Source: Candidatus Latescibacterota bacterium (GTDB lineage: Bacteria; Latescibacterota; UBA2968). Taken from it: a stretch of DNA of 64,000 bases. A model generated the notes under the pieces. It worked only from the letters and a program-made list of their open reading frames with translations, was not told the DNA's origin and searched no databases. This document shows positions 32,430-37,455 of this stretch, in pieces. How positions within the stretch are numbered: the first letter of the stretch is position 1; the number at the start of each line of letters is the position of its first letter. A program made the translations under genes and the position numbers. Location: assembly GCA_965262145.1 (NCBI GenBank), contig OZ253501.1:4260946-4324945 (forward strand). Reading direction: 5' to 3'.

Positions 32430-33317
32430 GTGATCAATTACGGCGAAGGTGTTGCACTCGGGGCGTCACTGGTTTGGGCATCTACCAGCCTCGTCTTAAG
32501 AACCCTATCCCAGCACCAGTCACCGGCACTCATCACGGCCATTCGCTGCGGGATATCCGGGCCTTTTTTTTGGATGTTATTGCCTTTTGGTCCTCCCCTA
32601 TCCACACTGGCTGACGTACCGATGCACGAATGGGGACTTTTAATCGGCTCCGTTTTCATCGGCATTGTCATTGGCGATCAACTCTTTTTACACGCCATGA
32701 AAGAAATTGGCGTGTCGCGCACAATGGCTCTGGTAGGCACGCTTCCAATTACCACGTTGATCTGGGAGCAATTGTTGCTCGATGTACCCATCACCCGCAC
32801 CTTTATTTTTGGATGTGTATTGGCTGCATCTGGCGTTATCTTACTCTCTCAACGACCGCGCCAAAAACGCCAGGATACGCAAGAACAACCCATTCGCCTC
32901 AAACGCGGGATAATCTTTGCGCTTATCACAGCCCTGCTCTGGGGATTGAGCACCACCATGCTCAAACCTGCGATGGCACATCTCACCAGTATTCAGGCCA
33001 ACAGCGTGCGAATGCCGCTCGTAGCCCTGGCATTATTTGGTATTTGGCGACTCAATCAGGGACGCGGCAACCTGCGCGATATCGGATGGCGCACATTTGC
33101 GCTTATTGCCGTGACCGGACTTGTAGGCATGGGCCTCGGGTCTTTCTTCTACGTCGAAGCCGTTCTGTTCATCGGACCGGCCAAAACAGCAACTCTGACA
33201 TCTGCAACCCCCGTCCTCTCACTTATTCTGGCCGTGATCTTTCTCAAAGAACAAATCACGCTCCGCATTCTCACAGGAGTTGCGCTCTGCGTGGCTGGCG
33301 TTCTGCTCGTGCTTTGA
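32430..33317 (+). CDS. DMT-superfamily (EamA-like) transporter
   Basis: It has ten predicted TM helices and two EamA-like halves. Confidence 0.75.
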   Translation: MINYGEGVALGASLVWASTSLVLRTLSQHQSPALITAIRCGISGPFFWMLLPFGPPLSTLADVPMHEWGLLIGSVFIGIVIGDQLFLHAMKEIGVSRTMALVGTLPITTLIWEQLLLDVPITRTFIFGCVLAASGVILLSQRPRQKRQDTQEQPIRLKRGIIFALITALLWGLSTTMLKPAMAHLTSIQANSVRMPLVALALFGIWRLNQGRGNLRDIGWRTFALIAVTGLVGMGLGSFFYVEAVLFIGPAKTATLTSATPVLSLILAVIFLKEQITLRILTGVALCVAGVLLVL

Positions 33318-33416
33318 TCCTTCCTCTTAGGAGATTGCACAGTTGACAAAATCTAAGTGAGAATTACATTATGGGGCCGGAAACCCAGTAAACAACAGCT
33401 AACCACAGGAGCAACC

Positions 33417-34088
33417 ATGGACGGCATTCACGACATGGGCGGAATGCACGGATTTGGTCCCATTGTCCGCGAAGAAAACGAACCTTTATTTCACCACTCC
33501 TGGGAGAGCCGGGTACTCGCCATATCCGTAGCCACGCCTGTACCGATCCCCGGAGGCTCCCGCAACAATATCGAAAACATGGACCCCGCGCACTACCTCT
33601 CGTCCAGCTATTACGAAAAATGGCTGTACTCCCGTATCAAAGGACTGATTGACGCTGGCGTCCTAACCCCGGAAGAGATGGAAACGCGGATGGCACTATT
33701 CAAGAACACCCCCAATGCCAAAACCCCGGAACATCCCGATCCCGATGCCGTCAGAGCGGAACTCGTGCGATCTCGCCCTGCCAATCCACCCCAACAGAAA
33801 ATGGATATCCAGCCGCAATTTTCCAATGGCGACCACGTAAAAGCACGCAATATCCATCCCGAAGGCCACACCCGGCTCCCCCGATACATACGGGGCAAAT
33901 ACGGCACAATCACCAATTACTACGGCATCTACAATCTCCAGGACGCCGAACTGCCCAAAGGGTGTGCAAATCGCCAGCAACCCTTATACGCCGTGCGCTT
34001 TGAAGCCTCGGAACTATGGGGTAACGCCGCCGAAACAAAAAGTGCCGTCTATCTGGACATGTGGGAAAGCTATCTGGAATCGGCTTAA
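33417..34088 (+). CDS. Nitrile hydratase beta subunit
   Basis: 'MDGIHDMGGMHGFGPI' and the C-terminal 'RYIRGKYGTITNYYGIY...LYAVRFEASELWG' match canonical NHase beta. An RBS 'aggag' lies 7 nt upstream. Confidence 0.85.
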   Translation: MDGIHDMGGMHGFGPIVREENEPLFHHSWESRVLAISVATPVPIPGGSRNNIENMDPAHYLSSSYYEKWLYSRIKGLIDAGVLTPEEMETRMALFKNTPNAKTPEHPDPDAVRAELVRSRPANPPQQKMDIQPQFSNGDHVKARNIHPEGHTRLPRYIRGKYGTITNYYGIYNLQDAELPKGCANRQQPLYAVRFEASELWGNAAETKSAVYLDMWESYLESA

Positions 34089-34248
34089 CCATCCCCAATC
34101 GGAAAAAGGAAGTAATTATTTAGGTTTTTGTGGTCGCGTAGGAGGGAAATCCTTTTCCCGACCTTGATCGCGGCAGGGATGCCGCTCCTACAGCATCCTT
34201 TCCCTCATCTTTCAGATGACCTAACCTAATAAAAAAGGGATACCTCTC

Positions 34249-34842
34249 ATGAACACAGTTGCCCAAACCGACACTGCCCTGCGCACCAGAGCGCTCGAAT
34301 CACTCCTGATCGAAAAGGGTTTGCTTACAACAGAGATTATAGACGAAATCGTAGAAAAATATGAAAAAGACGTAGGCCCACTCAACGGTGCCAAAGTGGT
34401 TGCCCGCGCCTGGACTGACCCGGACTATAAGCGACGGCTAATAGAAGATGGCAGAGCGGCTATTGCCGAACTGGGTTTTGACAGCGCGCACGGTGCCAAA
34501 ATCGTCGTACTTGAAAACACATCAAGCGTCCACTATGTCGTCGTCTGCACCCTTTGCTCCTGTTATCCCTGGTCCGTACTCGGCTTGCCCCCGAACTGGT
34601 ATAAATCCTATGCGTACCGCTCTCGAGTCGTGCGGGAGCCAAGAGCCGTCTTGCGAGAATTTGATCTCGATCTATCCGACTCCGTAGAAATCCGCGTCTG
34701 GGACAGCAACTCGGACCTCCGCTACATGGTCCTGCCCGAACGTCCTCCCGGCACAAAAGACTACACCGAAGAACAGCTTGTCCCACTTGTCACGCGCGAC
34801 TCGATGATCGGCGTGGCCATGATCGAATCTCCTTCAAAGTGA
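34249..34842 (+). CDS. Nitrile hydratase alpha subunit, cobalt-type
   Basis: It has the metal-binding '[11 protein letters not shown]' motif, where Thr indicates the Co type. It is 197 aa. Confidence 0.9.
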
Positions 34843-34849
34843 GGATAGG

Positions 34850-35191
34850 ATGGCGCAAAAAACCGACGGACAAATCGCCACCATGGAAGCAACAATCGCC
34901 CTACCCAGAGAAAATGGAGAACTCGTTTTTCAAGCCCCCTGGGAAGCGCGCGCATTCGGCCTTGCCGTTGCACTCAACGAAAAAGACCTCTACGAATGGC
35001 GGGAATTTAGCGCAGAACTCGCTACGAATATCGCGGCAGCAGAACAAAACAACGACCCATCGAGCTACTATGCCCGATGGGTCGCTTCTCTCGAAGAATT
35101 GGTCATTGATAGAGGCTTGATCAGCCGAGAACAACTGGACACCAAAACAGCGGAATACGCCTCTGGCATTCACGACCATCACGACCACTAA
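34850..35191 (+). CDS. Nitrile hydratase accessory (activator/metallochaperone) protein, beta-homologous
   Basis: 'ELVFQAPWEARAFGLAVAL' resembles the beta N-terminus. It is 113 aa. The C-terminal tail is His-rich, 'GIHDHHDH'. Confidence 0.7.
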   Translation: MAQKTDGQIATMEATIALPRENGELVFQAPWEARAFGLAVALNEKDLYEWREFSAELATNIAAAEQNNDPSSYYARWVASLEELVIDRGLISREQLDTKTAEYASGIHDHHDH

Positions 35192-35246
35192 AATTTACAT
35201 CCCGCAAACCAGAAAGGGTTACGCCATCTCGACGTAACCCTTTATA
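35163..35246. repeat. Left copy of an imperfect direct repeat (NHase accessory 3' end plus terminator) flanking the TA module
   Basis: It pairs with 36135-36243. The shared sequence is ggcattcacgac...cacgaccatca.cacga.cactaaaa...aaagggttacg...gacgtaaccctttt. Confidence 0.7.
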
Positions 35247-35248
35247 TA
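35216..35248 (+). terminator. Rho-independent terminator of the NHase operon
   Basis: The hairpin is gggttacg...cgtaaccc followed by tttatataatttt. Confidence 0.65.
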
Positions 35249-35366
35249 ATTTTAGCTGCCTGATATGACATTTTTTAGAATTACAAATGGGGACCTGAAT
35301 TGACTATCCATAGCGATTGTGGTATGTTTTTATTTATGGTACACACTACTAACAAAGGAATAAAAT

Positions 35367-35660
35367 ATGGCCCAAATGATACAGTTGCAGAACAGTGATG
35401 AAGCGTTACGCCGGATGGTCGAAACGTGCCGGAACCAAAATGAAGAATGCGTAATTGAGGATAATCAGAATCGTCCTGTAGCGGTTATGATGCCCATTGA
35501 ACGCTATGAATCCTATCAAGCTTATCTGAAGCAGAAGGAGAAAAATTTTGCGATTCTTGATACAGTAGCTGAAGATTTAAAAAATTATGAACCAGATTTT
35601 ATAGAGAGTCAGATCGAAAAAGCAGTACAAGAAGTGAAAGCTGAGGCTAAAAAACAATAA
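35367..35660 (+). CDS. Type II antitoxin, Phd/YefM-like
   Basis: It is 97 aa with 'RPVAVMMPIERYESYQ'. It lies 15 nt upstream of a PIN toxin gene in an AT-rich context. Confidence 0.5.
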   Translation: MAQMIQLQNSDEALRRMVETCRNQNEECVIEDNQNRPVAVMMPIERYESYQAYLKQKEKNFAILDTVAEDLKNYEPDFIESQIEKAVQEVKAEAKKQ

Positions 35661-35675
35661 TTGGTAAACTAATTT

Positions 35676-36128
35676 ATGCCCCGTGTTGTACTTGATGTAA
35701 ATGTTTTAGTGAGCAGTTTGATTAATCCCCGAGGTTCTACAGGTCAAATACAGGTCGCGTGGCGGCGAGATGAAATTAGTGTGATTACTTCAAAGGCTAT
35801 TATAACCAAAACTGAGGAAGTTTTACGTCGTCCTCATATTTTTGCGTTGTTTCCTATAGCTCGGGCAGAGGCGCGTATTCAGGGACTGCTCGCATTACTT
35901 CAAAACCAGACAATTCTAACTCCTCACTCCCTCAACCTGATGGTCATAGAAGATGATCCCGAGGATGATACCATTATCATAGCAGCAGTTGAAGGCAACG
36001 CGGATTGTATTGTTTCTGGTGATCGTCATCTTAGGAATTTGAAATCATATCGGGGTATTCCAATTCTATCACCTGCTGAATTTTTGGCACAGTATAAGAT
36101 CGAAAGCCCAAACATCCACGATAGCTAA
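35676..36128 (+). CDS. PIN-domain toxin (TIGR00305-type putative TA toxin)
   Basis: 'MPRVVLDVNVLVSSLINPRG' is the typical family start. It has conserved acidic residues (D7, E, D near 'SGDRHL'). Confidence 0.7.
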   Translation: MPRVVLDVNVLVSSLINPRGSTGQIQVAWRRDEISVITSKAIITKTEEVLRRPHIFALFPIARAEARIQGLLALLQNQTILTPHSLNLMVIEDDPEDDTIIIAAVEGNADCIVSGDRHLRNLKSYRGIPILSPAEFLAQYKIESPNIHDS

Positions 36129-36134
36129 ACACAA

Positions 36135-36243
36135 GAGCAACCATGGACGGCATTCACGACGGTCACGACCATCATCACGATCACTAAAAATCTACAACAA
36201 CAAAATAAAAAGGGTTACGTCGTGGTGACGTAACCCTTTTTTT
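36135..36243. repeat. Right copy of the direct repeat, with a chimeric 14-codon mini-ORF (36143-36187, MDGIHDGHDHHHDH) and a second terminator hairpin
   Basis: It starts with 26 nt identical to the nthB start region (33409-33434). It then continues with a diverged copy of the accessory-gene end. The hairpin gggttacgtc/gacgtaaccc is followed by a T-run. Confidence 0.7.
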
Positions 36244-36291
36244 GTTAGCCATCTGTTTTTAAACGCTGATTTCTGAACACTAAAATTTTTG

Positions 36292-37455
36292 TCAGTTGAT
36301 CATTCCGGCCTGAAATTGCTCGAATAAAATTTCTTCTAATCGACATTTTAAAGTTCTGGGTTTGAGAAATAGCTGTTTTTCTTCTTCGGGCGTACAGATA
36401 CCCAGAGGGACTGCATGTGCAAGCCGCGTGAATTTGTACTGCACGCCATCAAGTTGAAATTTGTAATTCTCAAGCTGGGCGTATAATGTGGGCAACTCAG
36501 GCCACTCGCGATAATTTTCTCCGTGTAGGTCAACGAAGAAGGGGTATTTGATATCCCGTTCCAGCTTCAAATGCCAATTGAATCCCCACGCGGGATTTTG
36601 AAGTAATACGCTCCATATAGCTTCCTGTTCAGAATACGAAAAGTACGTGTTCGTGTACCATATAAAGCCGAGCCAGCACATGCCACCACCCCGGGCATTG
36701 ATATCCACCCCTCCAGCCATCACCTTCCATTCTGGTCTGTGCGCTGCATTTTGGAGAAATAATTCAGATGCAAACGCATGGGTACGCGGAAACCAGCAAA
36801 ATCCCGAGAAGTCTGCATCTGTCCCAATAAATCCACCCTTATACGAATCTGAGAGCCAGCGAACGTGCTTACCTGTCTTAAGCCGTGTAAAGTTGATCCC
36901 TGTGTGAATAAAATTTCTAAAATTTGATTCTGTAAGATACGCATCTGTCCAGTTGGACATACTGCCATCGGCGCGAAAGAACGTGCAACCTTCAACGGTT
37001 GTCCTGGAAAAGTCTGCCCCCAGCATTTGGGCATGATCAAAGGTACAATCCAAAAATTTGGCTTCCCGAAAAATCGCTCTGGTGAGATTGGCCCTGCTAA
37101 AATTACAACGAGTGAAAACCGATTGTGAGTGATCTGAAAAGGATAGACTGAGGCCGGAATAATCCTGGTCCGTGTGCTCACAATTTTTCCCCTTTCTCGA
37201 TACCTCGGCGGAAAAACCATTCGCATTCAAAAGGTAATCTATCGATATCTTGCCCTTTGTTTCTTCTTTGATAAATTCGACCAACTTCGACGCTGTGCAG
37301 TGTTGAAGTTTAACATTTCCTTCCTTTGCACGATGCACTGTTGAACGCGGGACACCTGAACAACTTGTGACATACTCTAACGTAAGCCAATCATTCTGCT
37401 CGAATAGCCAACACAGTTCACGCGATATTCTCTGACTTAAACTTTCTTTCTGCAC
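36292..37455 (-). CDS. Pentapeptide-repeat protein with N-terminal HTH-like segment
   Basis: The tandem A(N/D)LXX pentapeptides are 'ANLTRAIFREAKFLDCTFDHAQMLGADFSRTTVEGCTFFR'. It is 387 aa. Confidence 0.65.
   Translation of the reverse strand: MQKESLSQRISRELCWLFEQNDWLTLEYVTSCSGVPRSTVHRAKEGNVKLQHCTASKLVEFIKEETKGKISIDYLLNANGFSAEVSRKGKNCEHTDQDYSGLSLSFSDHSQSVFTRCNFSRANLTRAIFREAKFLDCTFDHAQMLGADFSRTTVEGCTFFRADGSMSNWTDAYLTESNFRNFIHTGINFTRLKTGKHVRWLSDSYKGGFIGTDADFSGFCWFPRTHAFASELFLQNAAHRPEWKVMAGGVDINARGGGMCWLGFIWYTNTYFSYSEQEAIWSVLLQNPAWGFNWHLKLERDIKYPFFVDLHGENYREWPELPTLYAQLENYKFQLDGVQYKFTRLAHAVPLGICTPEEEKQLFLKPRTLKCRLEEILFEQFQAGMIN

Follow-up and report, generated by a model that had tools for sequence, protein, structure and literature searches.

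A probable remnant of a toxin–antitoxin-headed nitrile hydratase operon in tandem with a complete operon in Candidatus Latescibacterota

Introduction

Cobalt-type nitrile hydratase (NHase) operons are known that include a β-like accessory or activator protein, such as Rhodococcus NhlE and the P14K-type activators. Deletion of redundant, duplicated DNA between short direct repeats (microhomology) is likewise established in bacteria. The effector–immunity and Rhs arrays of type VI secretion systems (T6SS) contain orphan immunity genes and the remnants of displaced toxins, and homology-facilitated illegitimate recombination, with one homologous anchor and one illegitimate joint, has been proposed to explain them (PMC5361080). 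The present study concerns a locus in a Candidatus Latescibacterota bacterium that we compare with each of these systems. It lies in a window of 64,000 nt (the whole stretch of DNA analyzed; contig OZ253501.1, positions 4,260,946 to 4,324,945 of the forward strand) and comprises an NHase operon, a toxin–antitoxin (TA) module, a chimeric mini-open reading frame (mini-ORF) of 14 codons and a terminator-like hairpin. Sponge-associated data sets contain the same metagenome-assembled genomes, and the presence of NHase genes in genomes of this kind has been remarked on (PMC12993501).

Our analysis suggests, with a probability of roughly 0.8, that the locus consists of two tandem units. Unit 1 (33335-35254, + strand) is complete and TA-less, with a promoter and leader, nthB, nthA, the accessory gene and a terminator. 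Unit 2 (35255-36250, +) would be the collapsed shell of a TA-headed NHase operon, in which there remain a decayed promoter and leader carrying the TA cassette, the nthB ribosome-binding site (RBS) with codons 1-6, an accessory-type tail and a terminator. An earlier note on this DNA had recognized related sequences on both sides of the TA genes and had read them as the footprint left when the TA pair joined the NHase operon. As described below, what that note saw in the repeats holds, and its reading of how they arose does so in part.

Two Parental Ends in a Probable Remnant

The right-hand repeat carries the two ends of an NHase operon. Positions 36123-36160 are identical to the RBS and start region of nthB (33397-33434) at 36 of 38 positions, 26 nt of them uninterrupted, with a local score of 66 against 15.5 ± 2.3 for shuffled sequences (z = 22); the match extends to 43 nt at 91% identity (33392-33434 vs 36118-36160) and thereby covers the stop codon of the PIN toxin gene and the codons just before it. 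Beyond it, 36163-36239 aligns with the tail of the accessory gene and its hairpin (35170-35243; score 62, z = 19). The remnant is thus colinear with both parental ends, and these meet in the mini-ORF, MDGIHDGHDHHHDH followed by a stop codon (36143-36187, +; ATG at 36143, stop at 36185-36187), in which nthB codons 1-6 are fused to an accessory-type His/Asp tail. The tail resembles accessory tails of other species, for example GIHDDHDHHDH in L016, where L-numbers denote the related loci compared with the window, which include about 60 Latescibacterota NHase loci.

A repeat search located a 12-nt direct repeat, GGCATTCACGAC, which the earlier note does not mention, at 33423-33434 (nthB codons 3-6), at 35165-35176 (the accessory tail) and at 36149-36160 (the mini-ORF). 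The repeat is therefore found at both predicted deletion end points of an intact unit and in a single copy at the junction, and the deletion junction would lie within the copy at 36149-36160. The arrangement contains two novel joints in all, one where post-terminator sequence meets the promoter copy, at about 35254, and one where nthB codon 6 meets the accessory tail, within 36149-36160.

These results bear out much of the earlier note, which had described the identity of the right copy to the nthB start, the diverged accessory end that follows it, the mini-ORF itself and a second, better terminator. Formal alignment, which it had proposed, places both segments of the right copy far beyond chance relative to shuffles. 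Its suggestion that they are the start and end of a deleted β/accessory-type gene also stands, since each half has its counterpart in an intact gene of related genomes: the nthB half in L013 and L019, and the accessory half in L014, L016, L019 and L023.

The terminators place the right copy on the chromosome. The left hairpin (35213-35243, +) folds with −15.4 kcal/mol and has a poor U-tract, and the right hairpin (36202-36246, both strands) folds with −23.9 kcal/mol on the + strand and −24.9 kcal/mol on the − strand, with a U7 tract after it and an A-tract before it. Both are stronger than all 200 shuffles (z about −6.4 for the right hairpin), and the right one, which a terminator scan also picked out, is predicted to be a strong two-way terminator between the TA genes and mini-ORF and a convergent pentapeptide-repeat gene (36292-37455, −). 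It is orthologous to the sole terminator of L014, L019 and L023. When compared by blast with these single-operon loci, both window copies (the left up to 35243, the right from 36147) fall on one accessory tail and terminator, which is followed by the pentapeptide gene; because this mapping places the right copy beside that gene, the right copy appears to occupy the ancestral chromosomal position. The left repeat (35165-35254, +), delimited by alignments and folding, consists of the accessory tail, the hairpin and 11 nt of native post-terminator sequence (ATTTTAGCTGC), and gives way to the promoter copy of unit 2 at about 35254 (GCC).

The two hairpins are related in different ways among strains. 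In L001-L005, L008 and L011 the right hairpin (GGGTTACGCCATCTCGACGTAACCC) is exactly the left hairpin, and the spacers before it differ, whereas 5 positions distinguish the left from the right hairpin in the window, L006, L007, L009 and L010. Such a pattern points to gene conversion between the left and right copies in some of the lineages.

The TA Cassette Within a Second Promoter and Leader

The 130 nt upstream of nthB contain, in 23 Latescibacterota loci, a common promoter (TTGACA ... TAcATT) and a conserved leader of the form GGAAACCCA..AACAT.CAC.ACAGCTAA..AGGAGCAACC-ATG, and the leader motif GGAAACCCA..CACxACAGCTAA..AGGAG is present in all Latescibacterota NHase loci examined. Once the TA cassette is removed, 35250-35298 and 36101-36160 are colinear with the TA-less promoter and leader of unit 1, L014 and L007. 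Because its flanks align in this way, the cassette interrupts a second copy of this promoter and leader and does not lie between two accessory ends. On the left this copy comprises the decayed promoter and proximal leader (35255-35298, +), whose counterpart in L019 is found directly 3' of the EamA stop codon; on the right it comprises the distal leader (36101-36142, +), identified by leader alignment, in which the Shine–Dalgarno (SD) sequence is weakened to AAGAG (36133-36137). The cassette limits fall 45-55 nt inside the repeats, which end at about 35254 and begin at 36149; about 45 nt of promoter copy intervene on the left and about 60 nt of leader and nthB start on the right.

These positions contradict the claim that the repeats bracket the TA genes as a footprint of their arrival. 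TA genes in the nthB leader are common to four species-level lineages, and the TA module probably joined an NHase operon earlier, by insertion into that leader. The repeats would record a later event, which placed a complete TA-less operon next to a TA-headed one that lost its body.

The cassette itself (35299-36100, +; 802 bp, 39.8% GC) has a copy of 91% identity (731/801) at an unrelated locus, L093 4624-5425, and the similarity stops exactly at 35299 and 36100. In L093 the copy has a heparinase-like gene on one side and a DUF4926 gene on the other, and the same second locus is found in L092, L108 and L112. The AT-richness reported in the earlier note is evident from comparison with the NHase genes, which have 52-54.5% GC. 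The left cassette limit adjoins the −35 box of the cassette's own promoter, TTGACT-17-TGnTATGTT at 35300-35328 in a promoter scan. Downstream of this promoter are an antitoxin gene (35367-35660, +; 97 aa) and, after a 15-nt gap, a PIN toxin gene (35676-36128, +; 150 aa, with its native part extending to 36100), and the pair has been kept together at two unrelated loci. The earlier note had called them a Phd/YefM-like and PIN pair. The PIN assignment is firm, with scores of 61.7 bits for PIN_3 (PF13470; cut-off 27) and 59.6 bits for TIGR00305 (cut-off 29.15). The antitoxin matches Phd/YefM (PF02604) only below the Pfam cut-off (23.2 bits, E = 6e-5, cut-off 29.8), and the match is limited to residues 15-54. 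In an alignment of 14 PIN sequences, D7, D94, D97 and D116 do not vary, and E96 and D98 hardly do; the acidic, putative active-site residues of the PIN fold appear to be retained.

The end of the toxin gene identifies the insertion point. PIN homologues elsewhere stop at ...YKIx (143 aa), and one of them, P0003 (94% identity, 143 aa), is accompanied by the same antitoxin at the heparinase/DUF4926 locus. The window protein goes on with ESPNIHDS, about seven extra residues; its last nine codons (ESPNIHDS and the stop codon at 36126-36128) come from leader DNA, the stop being the conserved AGCTAA of the nthB leader, and the junction of PIN tail and leader reads GAAAGCCCRAACAWCCACRAYAGCTAA. From the limits in L093 and the ends of PIN homologues it follows that the cassette measures 802 bp and that the native end of the PIN gene, two codons and the stop codon, was lost. 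We also considered whether the nthB leader might itself have been left behind when TA genes were lost long ago. We rejected the idea, since PIN homologues encoded elsewhere stop seven residues short of the window protein, and the shared sequence is thus leader and not PIN. The leader of unit 1 reads as the empty site for the cassette.

Signs of autonomous mobility were not found. The two TA ORFs stand alone between the repeats, where there is neither a recombinase nor a transposase, a repeat search detected no inverted repeats at the cassette ends, and there is no convincing target-site duplication at 35298/35299 and 36100/36101, where at most one or two bases are ambiguous. The TA proteins match no defence-system model in PADLOC.

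Some relatives depart from the window in this region. In L005 (5127-6000, equal to L099 7310-8183 on the same contig), about 870 bp are inserted between antitoxin and PIN genes; the insert carries an opposite-strand ORF of 160 aa, and the first 30 PIN codons are duplicated. In L094 (690-770; JGI 3300009933) the leader stop codon of the PIN gene is mutated (AGCTAA to AGCTGT), and the toxin reads through the mini-ORF region in another frame to a length of 172 aa; the mini-ORF allele there is MDGIHDHHHHHDH. As to the leader, about 45 nt of it (GGAAACCCA..AACATNCACNACAGCTAA..AGGAG; 33372-33416 in the window and the same position in L012-L048) are kept across Latescibacterota lineages with β-subunits just 64-70% identical. 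It matches no Rfam family, and it may be regulatory.

Related Loci and the Order of Events

Intact and collapsed forms of a TA-headed operon occur among relatives. L013, from a sister Latescibacterota species, has antitoxin, PIN gene, leader and RBS followed by intact nthB (223 aa), nthA and accessory gene. L019, from another sister species, has the same order, but its PIN gene was removed by deletion between short repeats. L022 is of the window type, with a complete operon, the antitoxin, a PIN remnant, the mini-ORF MDAIHDHHHDH, the hairpin and the pentapeptide gene. In ten further close species there is one operon, and it lacks TA genes. These parts and homologies, the cassette boundaries and the intact TA-headed operon of a sister species can be read directly from the alignments.

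They suggest the following history. The cassette would have entered the nthB leader first; the toxin gene would thereby have lost its last two codons and stop codon, and nine leader-encoded codons would have taken their place. Recombination or slippage at a 10-12-nt repeat, (GG)CATTCACGAC, would then have deleted the body of unit 2, about 1.75 kb that begin at nthB codon 7 and reach the accessory tail, with the mini-ORF as a by-product. Ten of the 12 nt of the repeat are present in L013 and L019, and deletion between their CATTCACGAC repeats is predicted to yield MDGIHDEHDHHNH from L013 and MDGIHDDHHHDH from L019; the mini-ORF alleles observed are MDGIHD[G/D]HDHH(H)[D/G]H. A TA-less operon would subsequently have been re-acquired from a relative, through a homology anchor in the EamA gene and an illegitimate joint at GCC, about 35254. 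Today the TA genes would be autonomous, expressed from their own promoter, with a transcript ending at the unit 2 hairpin, which would also terminate the pentapeptide gene. We infer both the deletion mechanism and the route to the tandem placement from comparison of sequences. Collapse followed by re-acquisition seems the most economical route; tandem duplication followed by deletion and allele replacement is a possible alternative. The TA genes may have survived the deletion because their loss was counter-selected (addiction), and the sparing of the TA genes beside a 1.75-kb loss fits such an effect.

Several points weigh against this history. With the window alone, the similarity of 35255-35298 to the nthB promoter is weak (z = 4.1, with some shuffles scoring higher), and the copy was identified through a chain of comparisons by way of L019 and L013. 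In L022 the third mini-ORF codon is Ala (GCC, the accessory type) and in the window Gly (GGC), which requires a second, independent deletion or a later gene conversion. No intermediate was found in the approximately 60 Latescibacterota NHase loci: TA genes between two intact operons were not seen, nor was the order EamA, TA and mini-ORF without unit 1, so that the order of events had to be deduced. Metagenome contigs scanned for intermediates with the PIN protein gave three distant matches alone (37-49% identity) and no close relatives; the PIN variants P0009, P0011 and P0013 occur at the heparinase/DUF4926 locus or in unrelated contexts, and none represents an intermediate. Finally, the mini-ORF is in frame in all 23 loci in which it was tallied (7 alleles of 11, 13 or 14 codons, in two species-level lineages), in which a sceptic may see selection.

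Two other explanations of the repeats themselves have to be weighed. One is that a mobile insertion brought the TA genes to the accessory end; the flanking repeats, each about 90 bp, would then be a target-site duplication or the scar of a delivery crossover. Compared with L014, L019 and L023, the window does look like an insertion of about 1 kb flanked by a duplicated accessory tail and terminator, and a pre-formed module of leader, TA genes, mini-ORF and terminator could have entered a TA-less chromosome by homologous recombination at the 90-bp segment. The ends of the cassette at 35299 and 36100 do not touch the repeats, however, since the copy of the nthB promoter and leader comes between; 90 bp far exceeds any known target-site duplication; no transposase, integrase or terminal inverted repeat accompanies the genes; and intact operons in L013 and L019 carry this cassette in their nthB leaders. 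Even delivery of a pre-formed module needs the prior collapse of a TA-headed operon to form the mini-ORF, and we regard a mobile insertion as unlikely. The other explanation is that assembly produced the structure by joining different strain variants into a chimera at a short repeat. It might be suspected because the window is a mosaic, its NHase half corresponding to L001 (99-100%) and its TA/right-repeat half to L007 (100%). That mosaic concerns the combination of alleles and not the architecture: the order of operon, left repeat, TA genes, mini-ORF and hairpin is present in more than 20 independent contigs, which several assemblers built from at least 10 samples and some of which are megabase-scale with 80-220x coverage, and it recurs in the species-level relative L022. 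An artefact is hardly credible.

Mosaicism extends across strains. Over 32430-36250, compared with L001-L011, L100 and L102, identity is 92-96% in nthB, 92-99% in nthA and 98.4-100% in the TA cassette. Together with the two halves of the window, this points to frequent recombination or allele exchange at the locus, with breakpoints probably near the left repeat.

Further decay is seen among the relatives. In L019 (5250-5300) and L022 (7340-7415) the PIN gene was lost by short-repeat deletion and the antitoxin was kept, which looks like typical chromosomal TA decay. In L022 (6925-6965) the left terminator and the accessory stop codon are deleted, and the gene runs into the TA promoter region, giving a protein end of ...HHHDHKLQ.

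Is the Mini-ORF Functional?

Under the history proposed above, the mini-ORF is a by-product of the deletion. The contrary reading is that it is a selected micro-gene, either a His/Asp metal-binding peptide for cobalt loading of the NHase or the His-rich leader peptide of an attenuator. The start, frame and stop codon are kept in every locus tallied, the translation start region of nthB is retained, the tail is similar to the His-rich tail of the accessory protein, and there is a sub-threshold Rfam match to Thr_leader. Intactness was nonetheless rejected as evidence of selection, on grounds of the genetic code. ATG aside, the codons GAY, GGY, ATT and CAY cannot become stop codons by a single substitution. 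Changes in mini-ORF length fall within CAY/GAY runs and reflect triplet slippage. Because one-step stop codons are lacking and indels come in triplets, an intact frame is expected without selection. Moreover, silent changes do not outnumber replacements (G7D, D13G, G3A), and strains that differ by 0.4-1.6% in the TA cassette differ by 9-11% in the right repeat. The SD sequence is AGGAG or TGGAG before every real nthB and AAGAG before every mini-ORF, and only there.

The attenuator was also examined as a candidate in its own right. Across 33200-36400, Rfam gave only sub-threshold matches (Thr_leader, MIR405 and ctRNA), all on the right hairpin, and the Thr_leader match (36141-36244) scores 25.6 bits (E = 0.07), far under the gathering score of 55. 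The attenuator was rejected; moreover, the next gene is convergent and there is no same-strand gene downstream to attenuate. We therefore judge a selected micro-gene to be very unlikely, and the mini-ORF is most likely a by-product without function. Less probable still is a specific version, in which the 11-14-residue His/Asp peptide would be translated from the TA transcript through the nthB start region and would act as a micro-protein, for example binding Co or Ni and affecting NHase maturation or metal buffering. If this were true, the peptide would be a gene born by operon collapse and kept beside an addiction module.

Unit 1 and Its Surroundings

The operon in unit 1 is intact. It follows a gene for an EamA-family transporter (32430-33317, +) and begins with a promoter and leader of the TA-less type (33335-33416, +), delimited by a promoter scan and by alignment with the joined cassette flanks; the promoter, TTGACA-16-TACATT, lies at 33343-33370, and the SD sequence is AGGAG. 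Next come nthB for the NHase β-subunit (33417-34088, +; 223 aa; NHase_beta_N, PF21006, and NHase_beta_C, PF02211), nthA for the α-subunit (34249-34842, +; 197 aa; NHase_alpha, PF02979, E = 1.7e-85) and the accessory gene (34850-35191, +; 113 aa, ending in ...ASGIHDHHDH; TIGR03889, 74.3 bits, cut-off 46). The nthA translation contains VCTLCSC, the cobalt-type motif, and we take the cobalt assignment from what is established about CTLCSC. With α-subunit, β-subunit and accessory protein all matching their families, the operon is predicted to be a cobalt-type nitrile hydratase operon.

The nthB–nthA spacer is about 160 nt instead of about 30 nt, owing to a 135-bp insert with inverted ends (TTAGGTT...AACCTAA) at 34101-34235. 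The insert is present in L001, L004, L005, L007 and L009-L011 and in part in L012, and absent from L002, L003, L006, L008, L100, L102 and L014; fragments of it are also found at another place in L012 (507-568). Possibly it is a small, non-autonomous element that lies within the operon. It was rejected as part of the history of the repeats, there being no other copy in the window and no relation to the repeats.

At the other end of the locus, both sequence and gene content diverge right after the right hairpin (36247 onward, among L001-L011 and L098-L105). The alternatives found there are pentapeptide-repeat and glycosyltransferase genes, sulfatase and MFS genes, and a DDE_3 transposase with Hypoth_Ymh/DUF5343 genes, and the right terminator appears to mark the edge of a variable region.

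Discussion

The present study suggests that a short stretch of DNA in uncultured, sponge-type Latescibacterota preserves a legible record of how the locus evolved. Its biological novelty is modest, and no new molecular mechanism is involved. Of broader interest is the TA cassette, which is minimal and recombinase-free, occurs at two unrelated loci and would have outlived the operon that it formerly headed; this is consistent with addiction modules biasing which deletions survive. The locus also calls for caution in annotation, as a short His-rich ORF and what looks like a repeat-bracketed island would be scars and not a new element.

With known type II TA systems that have a PIN_3/TIGR00305 toxin, the putative module shares the order of its genes, antitoxin first and toxin 15 nt later, and a σ70-like promoter of its own. 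It differs from them in that the window toxin borrows nine codons and a stop codon from the nthB leader, the antitoxin scores below the Phd/YefM cut-off, and in sister species the module heads a metabolic operon. The operon to which it became attached resembles other cobalt-type NHase operons in its β-subunit, its α-subunit with CTLCSC and its small accessory protein homologous to the β N-domain. In contrast, the accessory protein here has a variable His/Asp-rich C-terminal tail (HHDH to DHDHHHGH), which was reused in the mini-ORF. His/thr leader attenuators (RF00506) likewise combine a very short, His-rich ORF with an intrinsic terminator close by. At this locus, unlike in those leaders, there is no alternative antiterminator pairing identified and no same-strand downstream gene, and the ORF has a traceable origin by gene fusion.

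The processes that shaped the locus have closer parallels. As in microhomology deletion, a repeat of 10-12 nt is found at both end points and in one copy at the junction, and the in-frame fusion is as predicted; particular to this case is that the repeat encodes GIHD in two paralogues, at the N terminus of the β-subunit and in the C-terminal tail of the accessory protein. The overall arrangement recalls the displacement arrays of T6SS effector–immunity and Rhs genes, in which a new allele is placed before the old one, the body of the old one is lost, and a gene whose loss is harmful, the immunity gene there and the TA genes here, is kept together with remnants of gene ends. In the Latescibacterota locus, by contrast, the displaced module is a metabolic operon, a single round of displacement is seen, and the same mechanism is proposed by analogy; moreover, the element that was retained is an addiction module embedded in a leader and not the cognate partner of the displaced genes. 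Thus, this locus adds a further example of processes already known, namely TA module insertion by illegitimate recombination, deletion between short repeats and displacement of one allele by another.

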